From contig OX597823.1 in the NCBI GenBank assembly GCA_951406725.2, positions 48,360,001 through 48,424,000 of the forward strand: DNA of 64,000 nucleotides, given 5' to 3'. A program made the translations under genes and the position numbers. Source of the stretch: Octopus vulgaris. Its lineage: Eukaryota. Positions 1 through 62,435 of this stretch are shown one piece after another; within the stretch, counting starts at the first letter, position 1, and the number at the start of each line of letters is the position of its first letter. The notes under the pieces were generated by a model that saw only the letters and a list, made by a program, of their open reading frames with translations, had not been told where the DNA came from and searched no databases.

Positions 1-406
1 TTTGTGGTAAAATTTGGAGTTATGAAAAAAGTGGTGGTTGCATGTGCTTAGGGCCTCATTATATTTGGTTAGTAGTGTTGCGGAGTTGTGTTTTAATACG
101 TGGAATACCTCTTTAAGGTATAACTTACAGGCTAAGTGTTGACCTTGGTATGGAAGCCCTGAATCTATTATGAACCATGATAAAGTGTAGGGAATATTTC
201 TATTTTTGATACGATGTATGTGGCTGGCAAGTGTTGTGGATTTACTGTGTTTCTCGTATCTAAAAGAATTTAGATGAGTGGCATATTGCTGTTTAAAAGT
301 TATGGTCGATCCTATATATATATATAGCTGTAGAATTGTGTAATGTGTTGAGGACAGTGCATTTATAAATTGCATTAGATCTTCTACAATGGGTTTGTAG
401 AGGGAA

Positions 407-410
<4 letters not shown>
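1..410 (-). pseudogene. Penelope-like retroelement GIY-YIG endonuclease remnant
   Basis: Hand translation with a frameshift at a (TA) run: FPLQTHCRRSNAIYKCTV..AIYI/GSTITFKQQYATHLNSFRYEKHSKSTTLASHIHRIKNRNIPYTLSWFIIDSGLPYQGQHLACKLYLKEVFHVLKH..LLTKYNEALSTCNH. This matches the C-terminal GIY-YIG of Penelope-like elements (IYK..YIG, H..SFR, CxLC..E, LLNKRxE..CRH). Confidence 0.85.
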
Positions 411-452
<42 letters not shown>

Positions 453-1164
453 TCATATTCCACCCATTTTGTTTTCACAATTATACCTTCATGTAACTTT
501 CTTCTTTAATATTTAATCAAATTTTCTATAGCTCCCAGCTAAGTTAATTTTTTTTACTTCAAACACTGTCCCATTTATTTATATGCTTAACTTGTAAGTT
601 TTTAAGCTACAATAATTGCATTTTTATTCAGATTTATATCATTACCCTTACATCTAATTCTCATCTGTATGATGGCACTTATTTCAGTTCCTTGCTATTA
701 ACCTATATCCTATATATAGCATAAGTTTCATCTTTGTTCTTTTAATTAATCTACTATTATAATCTATATTTTTCTGGAAACACAATTTTTTTTACCAATT
801 TACCCCAAATTAAGAGGATTCTTTAGTAATTTAGTAATTTAATAGTTCTAAATTATTGTGCAAACAGAATTATTCAAAACTTATAGTTCTCTTTTAGCAT
901 ATTATATATTTTAGTCAGTTCTGATCTAAGAGTAATTATAAACGTGATTCTTATGGAGAATATTATTTAAAAAATAGTATTATAGTAGCTGTTTAATCAT
1001 ACACACATATATGTACATATACATAGAAAGCCTAAATTTTTTTTTACATAAATTACAATTGCAACATTAACACTTATTGAAATAAAACATTGCCACCATC
1101 AATCTATATCACTAACTAACCAAATTACACTCAAGTATTTCTTGCTCTCTTGACTAAATATTGA

Positions 1165-1272
1165 TTTCAAATTTTGGCATAAGTTCAAGGAGAGGATAAA
1201 TCGATTACATTGACACCAGTGTTCAACTGGTACTTATTTTATCGACCCTGAAAAGTTGAAAGGTAAAAATCA
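1165..1272 (-). mobile_element. SINE family 2, partial copy
   Basis: Reverse complement of the cctttc..gggtcgataaaataagtaccag core and the tgccaaaatttgaaa tail shared with many copies in the window. Confidence 0.75.
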
Positions 1273-1512
1273 ACCCTTATTCAGGGACCTTTTGAGCGGG
1301 ATGGGTTACTCGACCAGAATAAAATTCTAACTTGGCTCCACCTGCAAGGTCATATGCTGTTTATCTTGATATGAGATCACCATGTCGTGTATATATATGG
1401 TTGTGATACATGTGCCTAGTGTACCCTTATCAGATAGGTAGTCATGATGGGTATACTGGGCTTCATGTATTTTATACCAATGTCACTTTGATGGCATGCA
1501 CTGCTCTCTCAC

Positions 1513-1546
<34 letters not shown>

Positions 1547-1550
1547 TAAT
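1273..1550 (+). mobile_element. 3' part of a (TAA)n-associated retroelement family
   Basis: High identity to 63868-64000 (ttattca.ggaccttttgagcgggatgggttactcgaccagaa...gatatgagatcaccatgt). Ends in an (AAT)n tract. Confidence 0.75.
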
Positions 1551-1765
1551 CCTTTCTACTGGAAGCACAAGGCATCAAATTTTGGGGAAGGGATTCAGTC
1601 GATTACATCAATCCCAGTGCGTAACTGGTACTAATTTTAATGACCCCCAAAAGGATGTAAAGCAAAATCGACCTCAGTGGAATTTGAACTCAGAATGTAG
1701 GGGCAGATGAAATGCCACAAAGCATTTCACCCGACGTGCTAAGAATTCTGCCAGCTTGCTGCCTT
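1551..1765 (-). mobile_element. SINE family 2
   Basis: Near full-length reverse copy (aaggcagcaagctggcagaa...ttctgagttcaaattcc...gtaccag...ccttgtgc). Confidence 0.85.
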
Positions 1766-1829
1766 AATAAGTAGTAGTAGTAACAACTAGCAGTACCCAT
1801 AGAAATTACACAGTATGTACAAAGTTTTA

Positions 1830-2420
1830 GATTGTTAGAACTTTATATAGAACCATAAAAATTAATGTTCTGTTTGAAATTGTATATTCTGCCTTGTTTT
1901 ATTTTTAAAAAACGCCTTTCAGTTCTTTTGGATAGGCTATAATTGAAGGAGCATGACTTCTCCATTCTCTCAGCACATCAGAGTTTCATTTAGAAATCTA
2001 AGAGTTTCACAATGATTACAGAGAATATCCAAGTCATAACGTAGGCTCTGGGGGAAAAGTGGGTGCAAGCACTAGAATTATCAAGGGACAATGAAAATAC
2101 TTTGAACATCGTAGGTTGGACCTGAGTTTGCACTCCCTCGGCAAATTTCATTCCTGCAATTATGTGTTACCAATGTTGTAACATTCAACCATATATTTAT
2201 ATCTGTTTTGGTGTTCTCTCTCATTTTTACTTTTCATTCTATCTTGAACACATTCTCTTATCTGTTGTAAATACTGTGTTCTCTTTGAGTCAGATTTTCC
2301 CTTCTATGCTGCTGCTCTCATGCTTGTTCTTGTGATCCAACCCTCTGCTTCTCTTTGCTGTGTTGCCTCCACTGCCTCATTCTTTCTTGTTAGTGTACAT
2401 CATCTGTCATCTAATTTTGT
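1830..2420 (-). mobile_element. Decayed Helitron Rep/helicase N-terminal fragment
   Basis: Minus-strand translation near 1910-2030 gives ILCNHCETLRFLNETLMC*ENGEVMLLQL/YPKELKGVF, resembling the Helitron CxxC-A(L)xFxxE-xxCCxxGxVxLP..YPxxL motif. It is preceded by an R/E/Q-rich stretch (2200-2400). Confidence 0.6.
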
Positions 2421-2795
2421 AAACAAATATAAATTTTCAAGCAAGCAGGTGATAAACAATTGCACTTAAGCATTAAGTGATAGGTGATATAAAAAATTTA
2501 GTTCAGTAAAAAAAAAGTACAATTTTTCACTATCCACTCACCACTACCACCACTCCCACCACCACCACCACTATTATCACTATAATTTTCAATAACAAAG
2601 CTTTGTTTAAGTTGTTTGCCAACCAAGATTATTTTAATTTCATTTCAGTTCAGTTCAGTTGCTTGTTTCATATCTAAATTTCATACTGCTGACACTACAA
2701 AGTTTGAATAACAAAATAAATAAATAAATAAATAAAAACTATCCATGGCTATTTTGCCAAGCTATTTCACTTTCATTGATGTCATTGTTTATTTT

Positions 2796-3475
2796 TAACC
2801 CTTTCATTACCAACCCAGCTGAAACCACCTCTGGCTCTGCAGCACAAATGTCTTGTTTACATTAGTTTGGAATTAAAATCTTCCACAAAACCTTAGTCCC
2901 AACTTATGTTCCTAAACACTAGCTTAATGATAACAAAGTTATTTTACTAAATTCTTTGTTATATTTAAAATTAATTGAAAGGAACACAGAACATCTCAAA
3001 ATAAATACAGAAACGTAGGTGTAGGAGTGGTTGTGTGGAAAGTTGCTTGCTTACCAACCACACGGTTCCAGGTTCAGTTCCACTGCCTGGAACCTTGGGC
3101 AAGTGTCTTCTACTATAGCCTCAGGTCGACCAAAGCCTTGTGAGTGGATTTGGTAGACAGAAACTGAAAGAAGCCTGTCGTATATATGTGTGTATATATA
3201 TATATGCATGTGTGTGTGTGTATATATATATATGTATGTGTGTGTATATGTTTCGGTGTCTGTGTTTGCACCCCCAACATCGCTTGACAACCGATGGTGG
3301 TGTGTTTATGTCCCCGTAACTTAGTGGTTCGGCAAAAGAGACTGATAGAATAAGTACTAGGCTTCCAAAGAATAAGTCCTGGGGTTTACTTGCTCGACTG
3401 AAGGCGGTGCTCCAGCTTGGCCACAGTCAAATGACTGAAACAAGTAAAAGAGTAAAGAGTAAACGATAGAGTTAA
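2796..3475 (+). mobile_element. TTAA-flanked MITE B (piggyBac-like) carrying a SINE insertion
   Basis: Begins TTAACCCTTTC and ends GATAGAGTTAA. A related reverse copy lies at 32632-33273 (ends ccaaagggttaa). Confidence 0.75.
3017..3460 (+). mobile_element. SINE family 1 (tRNA-derived, CORE-like, internal microsatellite), full length
   Basis: A/B-box-like head (gtggttgtgtgg...ggttcagttcc), CORE-like ccttgggcaagtgtctt, internal (TA/TG)n, tail atgactgaaacaagtaaaagagtaaagagt. Confidence 0.9.
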
Positions 3476-4099
3476 AATGATTGTATGTTAGGTGCAAGCA
3501 GCCAGATCCGGCAGGTTTTAACATAAAACAGGTGGAATGTTTGGGCTAAATATGACCAGTTTAAAAGCTAAAGAGTTAAAGGTTATCTTATCTATGGTCA
3601 TTTGACATTCAATTTATATATTTCTAATTCAATTTTTTAATACATTGAGAAGGTAGGTAGAATATCATAGAAAACCAATATTAGATACATTCCTCATCTT
3701 GAAATATAACATGTTGGAGTCTACTGGGACTGCGATGTCATCTACATATTACATACATTTTATATTGAAAAGGAGAGCTGGCATGTTATGATGTGAAAAT
3801 AATTACAGCAAAGAGGGTTATATGAAAAGAAGCCTTGGAGTGATAGGAAATTCATAAATATATTAAAATTAGTTATATACTATATTGAATCAAATGATGA
3901 GAAACTAACAAAATAATGAGCCAAATAATAGGATAATAAGTCTAATATTTTGTGGATGACTATGATGTTAGAAGAATTTAATTAAACTTTTGTTATAATG
4001 TGAGAAAGACAGAAATATTCCATTGGAAATGGAGGAATTAAGAGTTCTAACAGATTGAGAATTAAAGATATCATATATTATTACTGCAAGACATTTCAT

Positions 4100-4320
4100 A
4101 ATTTTGGAATTCATGTAGTATTTTAGAAAACTTATGACTATGTATAAGTAAATCTGGAATTTACATTGACAATAAACAGTAGTGGAGAGAAGTTTGATTG
4201 AAGACATCATATTTAGTTAGTAGATGCAAAACATAACTCTTAACCATACAGTTATGCCTGCACAGTACAGTAGTTAGATATAGCCCCAGAATGTATAAAA
4301 TTTGTTAATATGGGAAATCT
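4100..4320 (+). pseudogene. Possible hAT transposase dimerisation-domain remnant
   Basis: Frameshifted peptides TVVERSL, MQNITLNHTVM and LDIAPECIKFVN loosely resemble ERSFS..LKTYLRSTM..RLNHLM..LD....EFV. Confidence 0.3.
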
Positions 4321-4418
4321 AGAATCATTACCAGATATAGACAACAAATACAACAAAAAATTACAAACGTTATAAATAAATTATCTAAATCAAATTAAGC
4401 TAGTTAGAACACAGCATG

Positions 4419-4558
4419 CTGTGTTATTTATCATGAGAGAACCTCTCATATAGACTTGTGGTACACTCTGTTTATATCACTTAGCAGTGATATAAACATG
4501 AGTGACTACATGCACCATAAGTCCATATGAGAGGTTTTCTTATGGTACATAATGCAGT
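4419..4558. repeat. About 140-bp fold-back palindrome (MITE-like)
   Basis: ctgtgttatttatcatgagagaacctctcatatagacttgtggtaca pairs with tgcaccataagtccatatgagaggttttcttatggtacataatgcag. The inner tgtttatatcact-tagc-agtgatataaaca is perfect. Confidence 0.9.
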
Positions 4559-4602
4559 GTTTAGTCCCAGCATTTAGCAGTCACCATATTTCATTCCATA
4601 AT

Positions 4603-4692
4603 GGCTACCTCTGATGAACGCAGGGTTACATAATCAGGCTGCTACCTAACACACTATTGAATCCCTAGCACAAAACCAATCGGTAATATCAG
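4603..4692 (+). ncRNA. Degenerate type I hammerhead ribozyme motif (family B)
   Basis: CTGATGA, then stem II GCAGGG/CCCTAGC, then CAAAAC (CGAAAC decayed), near-palindromic ACCAATCGGT and GTA. Homologous to 51675-51760. Confidence 0.6.
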
Positions 4693-5551
4693 CTGTAATG
4701 GATATATAATGCTGTACACTTTGACTAACATATATATATATATATATACATATATACACACATGTATTTATATGCTTGTATATCTATATATATATCGTTG
4801 CTATTATGTTAAACTGTCATATGTCCAAATTTGGCCAAATGCATTTTTTTTTCAATATATAATTTTGCTTGCAACACCCAATTCTATTCCTCAAACTATC
4901 ATATCTCAAGCAGCTTCAGATGCCAAGATATGAAAATTGTCAATGTGTTGTAGAACAATTTAGCATTTTTCAAAAGTGTAGTAAGTCAACAGTTTTACAA
5001 AAATATTTCTGACTGAAAATATCATACATGCAGGGAGTTACAATTTTATGTAACCAACAAAGTATTATTGTTAAGCTGAAACTGTTGCTAAGGTAAAAAG
5101 AAACGGAATGGTGAAATTGCTTTTTCATTTTCTGAAAAAGCAATGTTTTGGACTTAGGACACTTTTGCATAATAGCAATGATGTATAGTATCTGCTAGGA
5201 TTTTTTAATCCCATTTTTTCTTATATACTGTATTGTTGTATACTGAAACTGTACTCCCCTCCTGGTAAAAAGTAGCAACCAGCTATGATATATACACCAG
5301 TAGCTGGTCAATAGAGGGAAGGTCAGGAGGTCGAGAGTATATGTAGACTATGTTGATAATCGTGTCTATGCTGAGATAGCACTTGTACTGTGATATTGAG
5401 AGGACATTATAACAATCCAACCTTTTGAGGATAAGAACACTGTACAACTGGGGGTCATACAGTACCAGATAGAAACATTCAATCAACAACTTCAGAATAT
5501 AATAGTATCGTCAAAAGACAGAACCAACAGTGGCAAAAGACCACTTTACAA

Positions 5552-6663
5552 CATGTGTATACTCGAGTAATAGTCGATCTCATGTAAAAGTCGACCCCCT
5601 ATTTTTGGCCAAAAGGTTGGCTATTTTCCATAGACCCCATATAAAATTTGACCCTAGTATTTCATTAACAAGTAGGTGGTGAGCTGGCAGAAATGTTAGC
5701 ATGCGGGACGAAATGCTTAGCGGTATTTTGTCTGCTGCTACATTCTGAGTTCAAAATCTGCCGAGGTTAACTTTGCCTTTCATCCTTTCGGGGTCGATTA
5801 AATAAGAACCAGTTACACACTGGGGTCGATATAATTGACTTAATCCATTTGTCTGTCCTTGTTTGTCCCCTCTGTGTTTAGCCCCTTGTTGGTAGTAAAG
5901 AAATAAGTATTTCATGAACAACAGGACAACGTTTGTGGGTCAAGGTACTGTTTTGTCCAGTATGTAGAAATAATACTGTTACAAAATTGTGTGGCTACCT
6001 TACAGCCATGAAGAAGAAAACGTTTTTGGTGGAGACTGTTGGTGGTGGAAAGTGGTGTTGCACTTCTACTTCTTTTATCAATTTTGGTATTTAAAACATT
6101 AAGTTGCATTTAATTAGAAATAAAAATGCTCTACTAATATACTGTGCCATAATACATTTGGGATCAGTGTGACTTGAACCATCAATAGGAAAATAGTATG
6201 ATGTTATTGAAGAGTTATGATGTGAAACATGTTGAGTAGGTATCAGCTGTATGCACCACATTACAGTAGATAGTGGTATGTCGGTACCGGGTAGGTATGT
6301 TGCCGGTGGTAATATAACATAATTATTAGACATAATTGATTTCACTCAACTAGTCTGTTAAGTTTGATGGGTACACCTAAAAGAGAAAGTGTTTATAAGA
6401 GCTACCCGGTCTGATTTATGGTCTGTTTTTTTTATCTACTAGGAAGTGTGCTTTGATGCACAGAATTGGTAATATCCCTGTAATTCATAGTGTTTTTGTT
6501 TTTATTCGTTTAGAGATCAGTTGGGCTTCTGCTGCTGATACAGTACTTGGGATTTTAGCTTGAATTTCAGCCCTCAGAAGTAGTATTCATGTAATAGTCA
6601 ACCCCATAAATTTGGTCTTAAAAATCAGTCTAAAAAATTTGGCTTTTACTTAAGTATATACAG
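5552..6663. mobile_element. Non-autonomous pogo/Tc2-like DNA transposon
   Basis: Imperfect TIRs: tgtgtatactcgagtaatagtcga versus ttggcttttacttaagtatatacag+TA. Internal repeats of taatagtcgaccccc-like motifs. Contains a SINE. Confidence 0.65.
5673..5905 (+). mobile_element. SINE family 2, full length
   Basis: ggtggtgagctggcagaaatgttagc...ttctgagttcaaa...ctttgcctttcatcctttcggggtcgat. Confidence 0.9.
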
Positions 6664-6671
6664 TATATACA

Positions 6672-6720
<49 letters not shown>

Positions 6721-6724
6721 TATA

Positions 6725-6925
6725 TAGTTGGAATTTACAAAAAAACAAAAGACGAAGACAGGTGTGTAAACAACAAACAGGTGTATTAGTTTGAAGCTCG
6801 TGAAGGTGAGAAAGTCTTTTACATTTCAAGACTACACTCTTCAACAGAAAGGACCACGAGAAAATAAACAGAGAGAGAGAATAAAAAATAAAGGAAAGCT
6901 TTATTAGCTAGCTGTCAATCATGGC
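6725..6925 (-). mobile_element. (TA)n-embedded small element with hammerhead-like motif (family A1; motif 6811-6852)
   Basis: Homologous to 8348-8485. Minus strand reads CTTT-CTGTTGA-AGAGTGTAGTCTT-GAAATGTA-AAAG. Confidence 0.6.
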
Positions 6926-7057
6926 AATATATATAATACACATAAGTATACATTTGGAGGTCTTCTTTCATTTTCCATCTGCCAAATCTACTTAGAAAGC
7001 TTTGGTCAGCCTTACAATATAATAGAAGACTATATATATATATATATGCATATACTT

Positions 7058-7243
7058 GTAAAAGCACCCAGCACACTCTGTAAAGTGGTTGGCATTAAGA
7101 AGGGCATCCAGCCATAGAAGCCATGCCAAATCAGACTGGAGTCAGGTGCAGCTCTCCAGCTTGTCAGCTCTGGTTGTCACCATCCAACCTATATATACCA
7201 GCATGGACAATGGACATTAAATGACAATGATGAGGATGATGAT
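7058..7243 (+). mobile_element. SINE family 3 (RTE-like (GAT)n tail)
   Basis: ctctgtaaagtggttggcattaagaagggcatccagc...ccagcatgga...ggacattaaatga(tga)n. Confidence 0.85.
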
Positions 7244-8122
7244 ACACTCACGCACACATGCATATACATACACACACTCACACACACACACAAACACACA
7301 TATATATATACATACATATATATACGTTTAGACTACTTTTAGTGGGAGATGAATATTACTTTTTTGGTGTTAATACTGCCTCTGCTGTAATTAGTTATTT
7401 TAAAATCTAGTTAACTTTCAAGTTCAAAAATTTGTTTATATTAATAAACACTTTATGTATTATTGGTATCTGAAAGAAAAATTTGATTATAGTAGAATTT
7501 GAAACTAGAAATAGGTGCTTTATGCCAAGATTCAGCTATGCAACCGACACTCATACAAACACTATTTCCAGTCTGCTAGAGCAAATAATGATATTTACAG
7601 TTTTAAATGTGATGTTATAAAGTTATTAATATTGAATTCACACCTTTCACAGCCTAAACAATGATACTTCACATATCTCATAAATAATAATGATAGATTA
7701 TAACTATAAGAATTCACCTTTAATATTCTGATAAGACCAGTTATAAGTCTTTCTAGAACAATATTGCAAGTGACAAAAGACGTTAGCAACTTCTAGTGTA
7801 ACAAAGATCAAATATCCCAAAGAAAATTTAATTAAAACAAATTAGAAAATACGGATATGATATTTATGTGGTTGGTATGTTTTTACATAGAGGGCAATAA
7901 ATAAAATTTGACCAATAATTGCTGAAATATAATCTTATTCCAGACTAAGTAGTTGTTTTAATATTTTGGTCAAAGGTGTAAGTATGGCGATGATGTTCAG
8001 AAGTTTCGTCTTTGCAAGCATGTGTTTCTGGATTCCTAGGTTTCTGGGTTTGATTCCACTGGGGAATAACCAATATGTTATGACTGTGTAGAAGCTTGTT
8101 GTGCATCTGTCTGTCTATGTAT

Positions 8123-8167
<45 letters not shown>

Positions 8168-8347
8168 GACACATAGCCACAGCCTCAAGGCTGAAACATA
8201 TGAAAGAATTAAAGAATATATATATATGGCGTTAGGAAGGACATCCAGCTGTAGAAATGTCAAATCAGACTAAAACCTGGTGCAGCCTTCCAGCTTACCT
8301 ATGCCAGTCTGGAAAGTGGACATTAAATGAATGAATGGCATATATAT

Positions 8348-8485
8348 AGTTCAGATTTACAGAAAACAAAAGACAAAGACAGGTGAGGTAATAACAAACA
8401 GGTGCATTAATTTGACACTCAGGGAAAATGTAAAAGTCTTTGATGCTTTGAGCTGAAGCTCTTCAACAGAAAGGATCGAGAACAA
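8348..8485 (-). mobile_element. Family A1 small element with hammerhead-like motif (8436-8474)
   Basis: Minus strand reads CTTT-CTGTTGA-A-GAGC-TTCA-GCTC-AAAGCATC-AAAG. Flanked by (TA)n/(TG)n. Confidence 0.6.
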
Positions 8486-8527
8486 GAGTGTGTGTGTGTG
8501 TGTATGTGTGTTTTTATATATATATAC

Positions 8528-8560
<33 letters not shown>

Positions 8561-8760
8561 AGGTTAATCCAAACGGGAAAACAGAAAAAACAACAACACG
8601 TGGAACAATTACAGTATTATTATTATTAGGCGCTCAGGAAAATGGAAGAAGGAGGGTATGACGTTTCGAGCAGAGCTCTTCGTCGGAAACATAAGAGAAG
8701 GAAGAAAGAAGAAAGATCCCGAAGTGGGCGAAAGAGGGAAAAAAAAACGCGACTGGTGTT
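8561..8760 (-). mobile_element. Family A2 small element with minimal hammerhead (8655-8695)
   Basis: Minus strand reads GTTT-CCGACGA-A-GAGC-TCT-GCTC-GAAACGTC-ATAC. (TA)n on both sides. Homologous to 14971-15170 and 19560-19750. Confidence 0.75.
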
Positions 8761-8780
8761 TATATATATATATATAAACA

Positions 8781-8814
<34 letters not shown>

Positions 8815-8918
8815 ATATGTAAAAGATGAGCATCTAACCTAAAAATGCTGCCTCAAATAAATTACCTTTCAACCCATACTAGTATGGGAAAATGCTGAGG
8901 AATATATCACAAACAGAT

Positions 8919-8949
<31 letters not shown>

Positions 8950-9639
8950 TGCATACATACATACATACATACATACATACATACATACATACATACATAC
9001 ATACATACATACATAAGGCACAAACATACACACAACATAACATTTATTTCTGTTGATGTGTTTACATCTGCATGTCATTGCATTGACACTGTTTTAGCAG
9101 TTGTTGAGATGTTTGTTTTCCCAAAGCAAAATATCTGACAATGGTTCACTGTGCGAAGATCTGGAACAAAATATCTTACTTGAAAAGCAAGGGTTATAGT
9201 CAAGAACAGCATTTAACTGTAGAGTGTTGTCTCACCGATGCTGCAATGGATTAAAAAAAAAATGACTGTACAACTGAAAACGAAATGATTGCCTTATTAC
9301 AGAGTTTTGCAGTGGAGTTAATCATAGGAGAGATAATCTACTCAAAGCAGAAGGTATTGAATCAACTTAACTTGCAATTGTCTTGTTTTCTAAGGATCAC
9401 AGAACACTAGATGCTTACATACACAAGCAAGCATATTCACATATATGCATATTATAGTGTGAATTCCAAATTTAGAATAGATACATTGTATTCCTGTATA
9501 TTGAAAGAGGCATTCAACCATAAAAATATCCCCAGAAAACCTATTCAACCCGTTTTTGCATGGTAAATTGGATATAAAATGATGATGATGATGATATATT
9601 TCCATTTTGGGTTGGTTTCATGAGTGAAGATTTATGAAA

Positions 9640-10300
9640 GGAAATGTCCACATCTGTGGCATGGCTGTAGAGATTACACAAGAAGGGAGATTGATCAGAG
9701 ATGGTTGTGATGTCTTCCTTTTTCTTCCCTCCTTTTTTTTTCTTATCTTCAATGGAGGCTGTCGCCCAGAGGACAATAAGATGCCAGACTTCCTGATCAG
9801 AACAGACCACTAGTGAAGATCAACATGGTAGATGCTGAGAGATTTCTTTAGAGACTCCTTGCACCTCTTCTTTGGTGCTCTTCTACAATGGTGGCCATAC
9901 AGTGTGATCTTGGGAAGTTAATGATCCTCCATTCTGGTGACATGCCCTGCCCAGTGTAGCTGTGTTTTCAGCAGAGTTGTTTTGATACTGATGACCCTTG
10001 CCTGCTCTAGGACTTCAATGTTAGTCAAGCTGAGGATTATGTGAAGGTAGCACTGATAGAATTGCTCAAGGAGTCATAGGAGGTACCAGTGGATGACTCA
10101 CATCTCTGAGCTGTGCAAGAGAATGAATGATCTGAACGATAGCGTTGTGCTCACTGATTTTGGATGTTTCTTCAGATGGTTATTTTTCCAAACTCTGTCA
10201 ATTTAGAAGGTGCTATGCACTGGGCCTATAGGGTTCGTTAGTTCCTCCAAGAAGGTGAAGTGCATGCAGTTGACATTTCTTCTTGAATAGCTGCAAGTCA
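9640..10300 (-). mobile_element. RTE (BovB-like) LINE, 3' fragment, decayed
   Basis: Translation LLEQFYQCYLHIIL..TNIEVLEQARVISIKTTLLKTQLHWAGHVTRMEDH*LPKITLYG..APKKRCKESLKKSL matches the RTE ORF C-terminus (QLRWAGHV.RM.D.RLPK). Confidence 0.9.
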
Positions 10301-12072: not shown

Positions 12073-14940
12073 CATGTACATATGTAGAAGTGTACATGTA
12101 TGAATGTGAGTGAAACAAGAAAACTTGGGTGATAGTTTTAAAACGTGGTCTGTTCAAGAAAGGATCTTGAAGAAAAAAAAAAATTAAATGAATTATGAAA
12201 TTCAGGCTAATTTAGTAGAGCAGAACAATACTTGATTAGTTGGCTGATTGGAGAAAACTTCAGAATCATGAGAGAATAAACAAAAATGTTCAGTGGAAAG
12301 GATCATAACGATTTAGTTGGAATGAATTTTTATAAAGTCATTGCTTCTAAAGAAAAGAAGAAATAGAAGAAAAAAAACAATATTATGCATGTGACTTGAA
12401 ATGAATCAACTTACTCTGGCTTCTACCTGACACTCAGCCTTAATCTTACTGTACACTAAATCAATTTTTATTACAAATAAATAAATTATCATTTTTATAA
12501 TCATTTAAAGTATAAAGAATTAGAAAATTATTAAAATAGACCAATTAATTAATTGAACTTCAAGATAAATAGAAAGAATATCCAATGAAAATTGACTTTA
12601 ATGGATAAAAGCAATTTAAGACAATTCTGAGATTTGAACTAAAAATGAAATATGCAGAAGTATTTTATTAAATATAGGTCATTGTCTTCATAATTATAAA
12701 GGGCCTCATAATAATTGATCAAGTGGAGTAAATTATGAAAATAGATTTCTAATATGATTTCTTCATGTGGAAAAGGTATGAATAAGAATGGTACAAAAAA
12801 AGAAAAAAAAAAGAGAAGACAGAGAAAAAGAGATGAAAACAACAATAATCTTTCCCTTTACATATATATATAATGAGATGAGTACAATGAAATCTGACTT
12901 GAAATCTATAAGCTTTGACAGAATATAATAAGCAAAGATTTCAGATGCAAAATTAAAGTGAAACAGAAAACTACCAGCATTAGCAATTAGCCAGCTCATA
13001 AAATTAACAATGCTGAAATTTAATTAAATTATATATTAAAGGATTATAATCTAAGATAAACAAAGATATACTAAAAAAATATATATATATATGTATATCG
13101 TTTACATTAAGAAATGTTCAATATATTAATTCAAAGAAATGAGAAAATAAATAAAGCAACCATAACTATTGATTTTTATGATAACTATTTGCTTTTGAAA
13201 TATAAATATACAAATACTAATATAGCAGGAAATTTGCCTTTATATTTCAGCATATTGAGAACTTTCTGAAATGTATCCAAGTAGATGAAATGATCTAAGA
13301 TTGGGGAAAAAATCTTTATGTAAATATAAGAGCAGTCAATGTGTAGTATTAATGGACTTCTCTGTTATGAACCATTCAGTCAATAAATATGTATTTGATT
13401 AATTTTACCAGCAACCACAACATGCTTTTAGCAAGCAAACTGATTTCAACGGAGACACAAGCCCTTCCATATCACAGCTGAGGAGATATCACATCAAACG
13501 AAATTCATGCCAGTTTGAGAAATTAAAACCAAAATTTCCTTAAGAGTTAAGCGATAGGTGCAGGTGTAGTTATGTGGTAAGAAGTTTGCTTCTCAATCAC
13601 ATGGCTTCAGGTTCAGTCCCACTGCATGGCACATTCGGCAAGCTTCAGGTCAACAAAAGTCTTGTGAGTGGATTTTGTAGATGGGAACTGAAAGAGACCC
13701 GTCATATATATATATATATATAAATTGGCTTAAGTCTTTCTTTGTTTGATTTGCATAATAGTGGTTTTGTCTCTAATTTAATATAATATAATATAATATT
13801 TTACTATAAAATTGGATTCAATCTTAAATCTGATTTTTCCTTGTAAATTTGGATTTATTCCCTAATATTTATTATTATATAAATATATATATATGTTAGA
13901 AGTATTGGGGGTGATGTACAGATTTAATATATATGAAAGAAAAAATATGTTCAGAATGCTGGATGGTTGTAAAAATATATATTTATTTATATATCACATA
14001 TTATTACTTCATATTAGCACTTTCAACTACTCCTGTAGTTTCAAGTACTTCGCTGGACTTTACAGTGTCAGGCCATAATTAGGACAGTGTAGGATAATGG
14101 AGCTATTGGTGAATTGCATATTTTCCTTACTTTCCCATCAAGTTATATTTATTTTATTTTATTTTACTTTGTAAATTTTTTAAAAAGTTATCGTTCGTAT
14201 CACTTGAAATTTTGCAGTGCGTATTAGAACTATAGCTCTTTTATTTGAAATTATCTCTTCGTAATTGCCTCCATGCTTATTAACTTTTATTCGTGTATAT
14301 TCTCCTTGCTATCTTTATTTTTATTTTTTATTTTTATTTTTATTATATTTTTACTCGTATTTTATTTTTACTCGTATTTACTTTTATTCGCATTCCTTTC
14401 GTTTTTATACACATTTTTTATACATTATTAAAATAGTATTTGTAAATTTAATTTTATTAGGAACACTATATATAACTAACATAGTTTTTGTAAATTTTCG
14501 TATATTTTTTGTGATTTTTATTCCTTACTTTATTTGCGTAACTTTTATTTCTGTAACTTATCTTTATTTGAATTTTTATCTGAATTATAGCTTGTACTGT
14601 GGAGTCCAGCGAAACTAAACATACTTATTTTGCAAATATTTATGGGATTTAAAAATTAAAATATAGTTTATTGTGTTGAACGTTGATAGGGTTGTGAGGG
14701 CCTGATGATTGGGATGGCATCTTGAGAGGAGATCCAGGGAAACACGGAGCAGTTTAGGAACCCAAGGATGTATCTCATGAAACATGTGTAACCAAAGAAT
14801 AAAACAGTAGGTATTTAAAATAAAAATAAAATTCTTTTTATTTGGTGAGAAGTAGTGGTATACTATCTCTAAATTAAAATATATTTCTTCATTGAGAATA
14901 ATTTGAACTTCTGTTATGCCGGAATTGTTATTCCCTAAAA

Positions 14941-16194: not shown

Positions 16195-16770
16195 CTTGTT
16201 TACATTTGCATCCATGAAAATTACTTGCTTCACACCTTTGAAGGTGTATGATCCCTAAGTTCAGGATCAAGCAAAGCTTAGTGACAGGAAATGTATCCAG
16301 CTAGCTCAAAATGATCAATAATAGACAAGTCTAATCAATGCTATCACAGTAAAACAGCTGTAAAGTGACTGAACAACTAAACAAATACATACACACTCAT
16401 ATATATTTATATACATGTACGTAATACATAATGTGTATATATATATATATATATATGATTGCATGATGATTGCTTCATCTTGAGAGATGATAGGCATCCC
16501 ATCAACACATGAACCACACCCCATCACACAGTACTCAATTGATGAGCCCTTAGATGACTATTAAAACCAGCTGCTGACTCACAGAGTTTAAAAACACAAG
16601 TGACAGATATTAAGTTTCTTCTATGTTTTTGCCATTTGGAATCTGATTCGGAATGTATGTTTTTGTGAGCTAGCATATATATATGTGTGTGTGTATTAGT
16701 ATGTATATATGTGTATATACTTATAGATGTATGTATTTATATTTATAACTTCATTTTATGTACTTTCTAA

Positions 16771-16895
16771 ACTCTCTGACGAAGCCTAAAAAAACACCCA
16801 ACTACCTCAATTTCATCTACTTATTACTTCAGTCTACTGGAGGGATAAAGGTAGAATGAGGTATTTTTGCCTCTTGACTGAAACAGCTGTAAGAT
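16771..16895 (+). ncRNA. Type I hammerhead motif with long stem II (family C)
   Basis: TCT-CTGACGA-AGCC...TACCTCA..TCTAC/GTAGA.TGAGGTA...GACT-GAAACAGCTGTA-AGA, with palindromic helix III ACAGCTGT. Confidence 0.7.
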
Positions 16896-19750: not shown

Positions 19751-20880
19751 TTTATTAATTATATATATATATATATATGTATGTATATTGTTGCGAATTG
19801 AAGTAAGGAAGACTGTAAAGAGGAGCAGATTTGATTATAAGCCATTAAATTTTGCAGCTGGAAATGCATCAGTCTTTTAAACTCCAGATGTATTTCAAAC
19901 TTACTATTACTGTTCTTTTATCTTCATGTCTGAATATGTTAGTATGCTGATTGTATCTGGATTTGAATAAATTGTTGGTAAGGCCTATATAGAATTTTGT
20001 GTCACTTTTATCATCTGTAGAAATCTTGGTACAGTAAATGAAACTTTTCAGAATGCATCTATCTTATGGAGAGCCTGTACTCTTGTTAAGGATGATGCAC
20101 TAAGGTGAGGAATCATTTGGTTGAGAGGGACCCAATTTCTTCCTATCAATTGAAACTAAAAAAGAGGTGCAGCTGTAACTTACATATCCATGTGGCCATA
20201 ACTTACAACTGCATGTATACATGCAGCTATAACTTATGTTGAAGTTATATCTGTTGAAAATTTTGTGCCACTACTGGTTGCTAGGGAAGTGTTTACTGAC
20301 TAAATTTAGGAAGAAACTGACAATCTCATTTGTTACAAACTGAAATTGGGTTATACCATACAGTCTTCCATTTCCTGGCGCTTCTAGCATTAAGAGCTCC
20401 TTTCAGAGAGATGTATTCCATTCAAGCCTCTTCTGCCCAGGGATTCACTATAAAATATAGCAGCATGATTAAAAACGTCCTCATTAGATGGTATTTTAGA
20501 AGTCCTTTTACTAATTGCTTCTGGGTTGATATTTACAGAATATTATGCTGGAGGTCAGATTTTGATTTTCTATAGGAGGTGCAAATGCATAAAGTTAGAT
20601 ACACAGCAATATCTAAAAAATTTACCAAGTTAGTATTAGTACTCAGTAATCCTGTGGTCAAAGTTCCAGAAAGTATTAATTAAATCTTTTCTAATGTCTA
20701 ATTAAAGTCTGTTTTATCATCTGCAAATATTAAACCATCATCTCTATACAATCCTAATTATATAAAACTGACTCTAGATAGCTGGTTGTCAAAAATAAAT
20801 AACCCTATGAGATTGCAGATTTTGGCTCTCCCATAGTCCTCAGCCACTATGCCTCACCTGGAAACCATCATCAAAATATA

Positions 20881-29383: not shown

Positions 29384-30394
29384 CTGTAACAAACATAAAT
29401 AAGAAATACGAGTTAGTGAGATATAAATGTAAAGAAGGAACATGAAACATTGTTTAAAACAAGAGAGAAACTGTTATTAATATCATTATATATAGATATA
29501 TAATGAGATAAGAGAAGTGATAGAATAGATGTTTATTCCATTTGTTGACAGCTGTTTCGTAATATGTATCTGGTTACATCAGCAGTACTACATAATCCAA
29601 CATACATATATGAATACACATATAAGTAATTATTTGGACTTTGGGTATACAGTTAGTAGTATGCTGGAGGATGCAACACAACCAGTTGTACAGTATCCCA
29701 CCCACAAGGGTCCAATGCAACACACATATATATATCGTCAGTAAATCACAAATTGAAAAGAGAAGCACACTCCATTAGGGTCTGACAAGACATATGTAAA
29801 GCTAAATGCTTTATGGATGCAAAACCCTGGGTAACCCTGTGTGTGTATGCGTTTGTGTATGTGTATTTATGTGTCTGGTCTTATGTATGTATGTATGTAT
29901 GTACGTACATACGTATGTATGTATTTGTGCTGTAATGTAATGAACAGACTACACATCAGAACATATCATGGCAAGTCAAACATCAGACTCTGCTATAATA
30001 AGCAAGTTTTCACATTATATATGTTTCACAGGCTTCCACCTTCTACAAATACTATAATGACCATATATGGAACTTACTATAGAAGCAAGAATAAGTCAAT
30101 AAATACAAAAAAATTTCAGGAAAAGTTTAGTAAAATCAAAAAATTAAATAGAGTAAAATGAATTAATCATAAAGATTTATGTACCAAAGACTTGGCCAAA
30201 TATACCCATAGGGTTGGAACAAATAACACATACAATGAACAACAAAAACAAAAATAAAATAATTGAGAAAAATATGGAGAAAATTAATAAGAGATTAATG
30301 AGCTTACATTGGGATCTGATTGATTATTTGAATCTTGTGTAATGTCACAGGATCCAAGAAACTGGCCTTATGAGTTTATGGCTTGGGAAAGATC

Positions 30395-55329: not shown

Positions 55330-55688
55330 TGTGTTGGTGCCACATAAAAAGCATCCCTGCTGGCACCATATAAAAGGTACCCATGCTGGAGCTACATGAA
55401 AAACACCAGTGCTGGCACCACATAAAAGGTGCCCATGCTGGTGCCACATAAAAAGTACCTGTGTTGGTGTCACATAAATAACACCAGTGCTGGTGCCATG
55501 CAAAAAGCACTGTGGACACTGTAAAGTGGTTGTCATTAGGAAGGGTATTTGACCATAACAACAATGCCAGAACAGACAACTGGAGTCTGGTGCAGCTCTC
55601 TGGCTTGCCAACACCTTGCCAAACTGTCCAACCCATGCCAGCATGGAAAACGGATGTTAAATAATGATGATGATGATGATGATGATGA
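55330..55688 (+). mobile_element. SINE family 3 with about seven tandem 23-25 bp units
   Basis: (tgctggcaccacataaaaagcacc)n followed by the conserved tail and (GAT)n. Confidence 0.9.
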
Positions 55689-61246: not shown

Positions 61247-61564
61247 CACATTTATAATAAGGAGAATGAAGAATTTGAACATTCAAACTTTATATTTATT
61301 TACAGTTGGTTTATTCATAATAATTGTCCGACACATGTTTTGATCACACTAATTGAATATTGTTGCATATTTACATGCAGCAATTTATGCATTATTAATA
61401 CAATCTCTTCAAGGTATATAAATATGACATTGTTCGAAGAGGCATTTTACATAGAGAAATTTGGTATCTGTCTGGATATTGTATCCCTCCTCTCAATATA
61501 CATACATACATACATATATATGAATAAATGAAAGAATGGAGTCGAACGAAGATGTTAACAAAAT

Positions 61565-61659
61565 CCCTTTACTCTCGACACATGTTTCGAAGACAGCATT
61601 TTCTCATTCCAAAGGAATAAAAGGTGCATTATGCAATCTTCTCATCAGGAAAGAAAGGG
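61565..61659 (-). ncRNA. Apparently intact type I hammerhead ribozyme
   Basis: Minus strand CCCTTT-CTTTC-CTGATGA-GAAGATTGCAT...ATGCTGTCTTC-GAAAC-ATGT-GTC^GAGAG-T-AAAGGG. Full core, 11-bp stem II with one mismatch, extended stem I, GUC site. Confidence 0.88.
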
Positions 61660-62044
61660 AGCCTCTCTCGACAACAAGAGAAACAAAAATTTCGATGATT
61701 GCCTACATGGTAAATAAAGCGATAATTCATTCACCTACTTAAATACATACATATATATATATATGTATATAAAAGAGTATGGAGACTTGTACATCCACAA
61801 AGTCTATTTTAAAGTTATATACAGCATATTATAATGACACAGCATATTATACAGCATATTATAATGACACATGTTTCTGCCACAGCAGCTACTCACTGTT
61901 GTGAATGCAACCTTGCAATATTGTAATATTGTTGGTGCAGCTTCACCAGGGTCTGTCCATTTGGTCATCCTCAAAGGCTGAACAATAGAATGGACTCATT
62001 CATCCCTCATCACTTGTGTCAGTAGATTCCCATCAGATAGTCAA

Positions 62045-62154
62045 AGAGTTCAGTCCCACTGTGTGGCACTTTGGGCTAGTGTCTTCTACTATAGCCTCAG
62101 GCCAACCAAAGCCTTGTGAGTGGATTTGGTAAACAGAAACTGAAAGAAGCTTGT

Positions 62155-62197
<43 letters not shown>

Positions 62198-62435
62198 ATG
62201 TGTGTGTTTGTGGTGTCACTTTGTCTTTGTGTTGGTCCTTTCTATCACTACTTGACAACCAGTGTGTGTGTGTTTGCATCCCTGTGACTTAGTGGTTTGA
62301 TAAAAGAGACTGACAAAATAAGTACATTTTCAAAAAAATAAATAAATAAATAAGTACATTCGACTAAAAATTCTTCAAAGCAGAGCTCCAGCATGGTCAC
62401 AGTCTAATGACTGAAACAAGTATAAGATAAAAGAA
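62045..62435 (+). mobile_element. SINE family 1 (5'-truncated)
   Basis: gttcagtcccactgtgtggcactttggg...atgactgaaacaagtataagataaaaga. Confidence 0.88.

Follow-up and report, generated by a model that had tools for sequence, protein, structure and literature searches.

A predicted type I hammerhead and an in-register upstream half-site in an abundant ~190-bp repeat of Octopus vulgaris

Metazoan Penelope hammerheads combine a large helix II and a G10.1-C11.1 pair with a palindromic helix III so weak that a dimer is required. As described by Cervera and de la Pena (2014, PMC4209133), they occur mostly as single dispersed motifs, in thousands and in several families per genome, and they are weak in vitro. 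Penelope-like elements show a bias toward microsatellites and form partial tandems (PMC8557442). Animal retrozymes measure 170-400 nt, and their monomers are circularised by RtcB (PMC7229834). In a preprint (10.64898/2026.07.22.740005), retrozymes are argued to be derivatives of pLTRs, with solo monomers and predicted family lengths of 51-972 bp; solo monomers are reported across Xenopus chromosomes, and 8 of 9 predicted Xenopus retrozyme dimers gave no cleavage in vitro. A hammerhead in an abundant mobile repeat is already a known kind of thing. For Octopus vulgaris, Penelope-like elements were put at 6.83% of the assembly (PMC13282606 supplement), and the words hammerhead, ribozyme and retrozyme occur 0 times in the main text and one supplement of that 2026 repeat annotation. 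We found no cephalopod hammerhead family in print; the supplementary tables of the hammerhead and retrozyme papers may list one.

The locus described here lies in a stretch of 64 kb of O. vulgaris DNA, the whole of which was analysed and is called the window (Table 1). With the metazoan Penelope hammerheads (PMC4209133), its motif shares the type I order, a large helix II, the G10.1-C11.1 pair and a small palindromic helix III. It differs from them in that there is no extra nucleotide after A9, in that helix I is longer (5+7 bp), and in that no RT/GIY-YIG frame is linked to the repeat at the locus. An upstream in-register half-site, which the octopus repeat has, is not among the features described for Penelope hammerheads in the same source. 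The repeat resembles animal non-LTR retrozymes (PMC7229834; preprint 10.64898/2026.07.22.740005) in being non-coding, AT-rich, high-copy and ~200 bp long, with a type I motif and solo monomers as a known form. However, non-LTR retrozymes are tandem units that each hold a complete hammerhead, whereas the octopus locus has one copy and one core. The satellite hammerheads of newt and axolotl likewise have a weak helix III with a palindromic tetraloop, and they are poor as monomers and efficient as dimers; they stand in tandem arrays of 330-350 bp and use loop-loop contacts, whereas the octopus motif has a long interrupted helix II (PMC7229834).

Table 1. Positions of the features in the window
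Feature	Position	Strand	Basis or detail
High-copy non-coding ribozyme-bearing repeat, ~190 bp	61538..61732	-	Contig depth; ends approximate (in masked microsatellite)
TA/TATG microsatellite, 5' boundary of repeat	61737..61774		Sequence pattern
TA/TATG microsatellite, 3' boundary of repeat	61494..61529		Sequence pattern
Repeat head, no recognisable core	61717..61734	-	Local hairpin or pairs with ribozyme 3' strands
Upstream half-site, part 1: helix II-like strand, then second GAAA	61690..61702	-	In-register pairing
Upstream half-site, part 2: GUC and purine tract complementary to helix I 5' strand	61662..61672	-	Pairing, shuffles
Helix I, 5' strand	61649..61660	-	In centroid structure; duplex with 61576-61564
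Catalytic core CUGAUGA	61642..61648	-	Pattern match
Helix II with inserted 9-bp hairpin 61622-61602	61589..61641	-	Strands 61641-61631 with 61599-61589
GAAA, helix III, loop, GUC	61577..61588	-	GAAA 61588-61585, GAAAC 61588-61584, GUC 61579-61577
Helix I, 3' strand	61564..61576	-	Pairs with 61649-61660
Different repeat family, decayed hammerhead	61290..61448	-	Core 61412-61406, GUC 61332-61330
Second different repeat family, decayed hammerhead	61784..61990	-	Core 61948-61942, GAAAC 61877-61873

An earlier note on this DNA had described an intact CUGAUGA/GAAAC core with stems I and II and a GUC on the minus strand, and all of its coordinates held. The letters of CUGAUGA, GAAA and NUH are present in type I order, and helices I, II and III can all form in folding round the unpaired core. 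Helix I consists of 12 bp (5+7) with one bulge, and its duplex was calculated at -13.3 kcal/mol. Helix II is closed by G10.1-C11.1, directly preceded by A9 without an extra nucleotide, and contains 6 bp, a U-U mismatch and 4 bp; helix III is formed by 2 bp that close the loop AUGU. The 106-nt hammerhead stretch folded at -28.7 kcal/mol (z -2.5; 2 of 200 shuffles were equally low), with a centroid that is the hammerhead with an open core. A type I descriptor search of the window returned the main hammerhead as its 1 match, and 2 of 60 shuffled windows were matched as well. As judged from this modelling, the repeat carries a real type I hammerhead, for which cleavage is predicted at the downstream site, between 61577 and 61576. 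The active type I fold at this site had a predicted occupancy of 2e-3 to 9e-3 in context (4e-3 for the monomer) in constrained partition functions. The Rfam hammerhead models, which the earlier note had named as a check, gave no match at the gathering score (0 hits) and none among the 59 matches to E=10. A possible reason is the length of the helix II region, which at 53 nt greatly exceeds that of canonical motifs.

The 8-nt strand of helix III is self-complementary and forms a duplex of -6.0 kcal/mol. Two copies folded together reached -64.8 kcal/mol versus -55.8 for two monomers, i.e. 9 lower, and contained 8 intermolecular pairs at helix III. The main hammerhead shows the Penelope-type traits of a palindromic 15.2-16.2 and loop 3, a large helix II and G10.1-C11.1, but it lacks two others, the extra nucleotide between A9 and G10.1 and a short helix I. 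Core, helices and palindromic helix III are nevertheless consistent with a type I hammerhead of the Penelope and retrozyme kind, as had been proposed.

Sequencing runs touching 61290-62040 numbered 20 and came from five coded organisms, with none of them listed as RNA, which says nothing about expression; the contigs of 4 runs (1,580, 1,412, 1,008 and 64 per run) were compared at 80% likeness. By contig depth, the repeat was extremely abundant in three related organisms. Over 61550-61731, summed contig depth, which is not a true copy number, amounted to 96,000-399,000 for X1, 50,000-522,000 for X2 and 3,700-75,000 for X5. Contigs exactly matching the adjacent flank had a depth of 39 (X1) and 44 (X2), so that the ratio of repeat to flank points to thousands of copies. 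The block of high depth stops at the microsatellites on both sides, but the window holds 74 such runs by our own pattern. Exact-pattern scans for the motif found 0 loci in metagenome contigs, viral contigs and prokaryote genomes. No reverse-transcriptase or endonuclease frame (RT, GIY-YIG) adjoins the repeat at the locus, and the link to Penelope thus rests on resemblance.

Differences among copies left the ribozyme letters intact: among the 40 of 82 difference rows listed, none touched CUGAUGA, GAAA or the downstream GUC. Several variants preserved pairing. A variant at 61574, in the 3' strand of helix I, turns G-U into A-U; in the region of helix II, pairing is kept by U-G to U-A at 61603 and by G-C to G-U at 61596. 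All listed helix variants are one-sided and the contigs are unphased, so these are not counts of two-sided covariation. The insert and the loop of helix II vary among copies. A variant at 61581 makes the palindrome of helix III perfect and accounted for 49% (X1), 64% (X2), 64% (X5) and 78% (X8) of depth. With its many natural variants, the family offers a good test set for the dimer model.

The form of the repeat also bears on the idea that it is a solo copy of a non-LTR retrozyme with arrays elsewhere, in which one cut per unit would yield a full-unit circle of ~190 nt or more and the upstream match would be incidental. We consider this quite improbable. The window contains one copy of the repeat, and no tandem unit with a complete hammerhead was found at the locus or elsewhere in the window. 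Among the 15 of 19 joints listed, none was a head-to-tail joint, although masked microsatellites could hide one. The ribozyme also lacks the canonical loop 1/loop 2 anatomy of retrozyme hammerheads (PMC7229834). Against these points stand a size within the 170-400 nt of animal retrozymes (PMC7229834), the solo monomers across Xenopus chromosomes (preprint 10.64898/2026.07.22.740005) and the sharp ends of the depth block, which shows no 5'-truncation gradient.

The second GUC-GAGAG, which the earlier note had placed 93 nt upstream, was confirmed at 61672-61670, with 9 letters identical around both sites. Shuffling produced the upstream-site arrangement in 12 of 20,000 cases (117 of 20,000 at a looser 5+3 rule) and the exact shared 8-mer in 21 of 20,000, for patterns that, like all upstream patterns tested in this way, were picked after the sequence was seen. 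Between the upstream GAGAG(AGG) and the helix I strand, 8 pairs form in catalytic register, 3 of which are G-U. The alternative type III-like fold that had been proposed proved exact in its geometry: the 8-bp helix I is in register with a 5-nt closing loop, and helix III comprises the stated 3 bp.

A further feature had been missed in the earlier note. The strand 61702-61694, which precedes the second GAAA, pairs at 8 of 9 positions with the helix II strand of the main core, including G10.1-C11.1. This pairing arose in register in 174 of 50,000 shuffles; 8/9 pairing anywhere is common (9,124 of 20,000). Because the second GAAA and its strand are in register, the upstream segment appears to be a duplicate of the ribozyme's 3' half. 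One enzyme strand is thus accompanied by two 3' halves, and for the upstream one both a type II and a type III drawing are possible. The upstream cut site is real rather than a chance match, but probably a decayed half-copy of the ribozyme. The two halves aligned no better than shuffles (847 of 5,000; 4,542 of 5,000 when the shared site was left out), and the duplication is therefore argued from the in-register pairing only. As for a decayed first ribozyme, which the earlier note had suggested, its stem was recovered with 8 of 10 pairs, but GTGAATGA did not fit CUGANGA and an A-C pair lies beside GAAA. A complete degenerate first ribozyme starting from 61734 was rejected, as no CUGANGA fit was found and the halves align like shuffles.

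In three DNA runs, 75-83% of contig depth retained the upstream GUC. GUU replaced it in 17% (X1), 23% (X2), 25% (X5) and 99% (X8) of depth; this is a CpG-type change that still leaves an NUH site, and a few loose ends show GCU. The earlier note had set absence of the upstream GUC from other copies against its idea of a second cut. Since the remainder is mostly GUU and still NUH, the copies leave that idea unrefuted. In a sister subfamily, seen as 27, 29, 18 and 5 loose ends at 61679, the pairing strand is kept and the second GAAA is changed. Two diverged subfamilies have retained an upstream GUC or GUU together with the helix II-like strand, a persistence not expected from pure decay. From one X8 contig, 61710-61655 is seemingly absent (loose end at 61654). 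The X8 run, guessed to be RNA, consists mostly of sister-subfamily contigs, with GUU at 61670 in 310 of 314 depth versus 17% in the DNA of the same organism; this dominance may reflect subfamily-specific transcription.

We regard it as probable that the element is a non-autonomous Penelope-type repeat, cut once at 61577 with the aid of a second copy, and that its upstream half is a relic of a duplication. According to this proposal, the ~190-bp element would be a dispersed non-autonomous Penelope-like repeat, either a pLTR or a solo retrozyme, inserted in a TA microsatellite. Its minus-strand transcript would fold helices I and II, and the 2-bp helix III would be too weak for efficient cleavage by a lone molecule. 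Two copies would join through their palindromic helix III strands to form a double hammerhead, in which each cuts once after the GUC at 61577, and this cut would trim the transposition RNA. The segment 61702-61662 would be a decayed duplicate of the ribozyme 3' half, comprising helix II strand, GAAA, spacer, GUC and helix I strand. It may have arisen by a 5'-truncated partial-tandem insertion in the ancestor of the family and have been copied since; having no usable helix III, it would stay uncut. We favour this proposal because of the palindromic helix III, the two-copy fold, the Penelope-like traits and, as described below, the 5 related motifs and the GIY-YIG-like remnant in the window. It is weakened by the absence of an RT frame beside the repeat, by the non-typical A9 and helix I, by the insignificant alignment of the two halves and by the persistence of the upstream features.

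The earlier note had gone further and had one core cutting at both sites and freeing a 93-nt unit. One enzyme strand would then serve two in-register substrate halves through a switch of topology and excise a ligatable 93-nt RNA, which appears very improbable. The enzyme strand would refold as type III after the downstream cut, or as type II before it, and cut after 61670; to such a sequence of events we assign only a slight chance. Equally hard to credit is the product, a 93-nt RNA with 5'-OH and cyclic phosphate that could be closed by RtcB into a circle holding the whole hammerhead. If true, the double cut would be a route to very small circular RNAs with one catalytic core instead of two. 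We found no natural single-core double cutter in the literature searched, which was chiefly open-access.

Geometry speaks for such a double cut. The 8-bp helix I hairpin, the 3-bp helix III and the in-register helix II strand with GAAA are exact and each rare in shuffles; GUC or GUU stands upstream in nearly all listed depth, and GUU is listed among the cleavable NUH sites (PMC3138052). The 93-mer can be drawn as a closed hammerhead, and RtcB is the enzyme that circularises retrozyme monomers (PMC7229834). The predicted energies, however, argue against it. The active type III fold reached 3e-9 in the whole element and in the downstream-cut product and 7e-8 in nascent RNA. Its best value over 5 starts, 4 ends and 6 allele sets was 1.8e-4, obtained for a GUU-bearing RNA of which 6 nt remained ahead of the site; with natural letters at 61680, 61581, 61670 and 61574, it was at most 8e-6 in the full-length element. 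The type II fold stayed at or below 4e-10 in the element of the window and, in trimmed RNA bearing the 61680 letter, did not exceed 4e-8. Type III thus ranges from 3e-9 to ~1e-4, whereas the downstream site has 2e-3 to 9e-3. The upstream site lies 4 to 7 orders of magnitude lower in context, and even in trimmed RNA it is at least 50-fold lower, in a calculation with nearest-neighbour energies that omit Mg2+ and tertiary contacts, so that slow cleavage upstream stays compatible with it.

The upstream helix III is predicted to be too weak for the site, with 3 bp in type III or A-U plus U-G in type II and an occupancy of at most 1e-7 in the element of the window. The upstream purine tract pairs preferentially 2 nt out of register, or else folds into a local hairpin in which the GUC is buried; the 61680 letter of nearly all other copies weakens this hairpin, but insufficiently. 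Pairing of the palindrome by the upstream strand amounted to -0.1 versus -6.0 kcal/mol for the main strand, without any gain from dimerisation. The downstream partner of helix I is also the better one (-13.3 versus -8.9 kcal/mol), and different sequences follow the two GUCs, contrary to what is expected of a unit-length tandem. From these two observations, we deduced that the family is not built from a 93-nt circle. Of the 15 joints listed (of 19) in the contigs of four runs, none fell within 61530-61745 and none was a 93-nt back-joint, and an X8 contig with a depth of 3.7 bridges the upstream site. Nothing found shows an upstream cut or a 93-nt RNA circle. Reading the upstream half as a relic is favoured because the folds that would cut there stay at or below 1e-7 in the element of the window and because the second GAAA of the sister subfamily is changed.

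The depth of X8 itself changes along the element, dropping from 524 to 232 downstream of 61577 and being 3.7 upstream of 61680, positions at which the DNA runs continue. We treat this pattern as a lead and did not count it: it comes from one run, contigs hide RNA ends, and the letters are mostly those of the sister subfamily.

Persistence of the upstream segment could also mean that it is kept as an off-switch, which during transcription would hold the helix I strand, the core or helix II by pairing, and so keep single transcripts uncut, until the 3' strand or a partner molecule arrives. This seems unlikely to us, though it accounts for several observations. At its lowest energy (-49.6 kcal/mol), the element folds into an inactive rod; 4 of 200 shuffles (-40.3 +/- 3.9 kcal/mol) were as low, and ribozyme helices I and II together have P=0.43. 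In nascent RNA, an alternative helix II has P=0.07-0.12, and in the sister subfamily the pairing strand persists where the second GAAA is changed. Blocking of the ribozyme by complementary sequence is known in plant retrozymes and viroids, but most animal retrozymes are not blocked in that way (PMC7229834). Upstream complementarity to the core and its flanks (1,534 of 3,000 shuffles) and to the 3' half (331 of 3,000) was within chance, and to helix II alone it was marginal (113 of 3,000). The X8 contig with its loose end at 61654, which seemingly lacks the whole upstream segment, points in the same direction.

Two further families with decayed hammerheads flank the repeat. Both have its orientation, are separated from it by TA microsatellite and are less abundant, and their depth drops 5'-ward as for truncated retroelements. 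The family at 61290-61448 had an X1 depth of 4,700-9,800, falling toward the 5' end; in its other copies the core letters at 61412 and 61341 are intact and the loop at 61335 is palindromic. For the family at 61784-61990, X1 depth was 300-8,800. CUGAUGA (61946) is present in its other copies, as is a GUA site whose helix I has 4 bp; at that place, the copy in the window is 4 nt short. An 11-mer shared at both flanking copies arises from local changes. The three AAACATGTGTC motifs, of which one lies 289 nt upstream and one 247 nt downstream of that in the repeat, were rejected as a single tandem retrozyme: they lie in separate depth blocks and have different family letters.

GAAAC-palindrome-GUH motifs occurred 5 times in the window versus 0.72 expected (0 of 100 shuffles). 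Four of the 5 have an exact or one-mismatch CUGANGA at most 110 nt upstream, and the case at 29558 has a shifted one. Together with the flanking families, this excess indicates that hammerheads of the main type are common in the window, as in other animals. The genome is likely to join those animal genomes in which Penelope-type hammerheads abound, several families occurring within 64 kb. Hammerhead-like relics with palindromic helix III loops were seen at 14702-14790 (+), 16776-16891 (+), 29547-29585 (-) and 16351-16362 (+), the first two of which have CUGAUGA or CUGACGA cores upstream.

A GIY-YIG-like remnant lies at 1-474 of the window (-), with a feature score of 0.94-0.95 and one cluster with 15% PF01541; a Pfam search of 1-474 found nothing. 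At 19803-19991 (-) lies a second GIY-YIG-like remnant, which weakly resembles the one at 1-474 in tblastn (E=0.053). AT content is high across the window (GC 0.25-0.39 per 2 kb), which contains 79 microsatellite rows and many short dispersed repeats. One abundant short dispersed repeat at 62048-62434 has many copies in the window, among them those at 3072, 45560, 52481 and 57336; these are presumably SINEs. Within another dispersed repeat, a 26-bp minisatellite of ~7 units was observed at 55331-55510.
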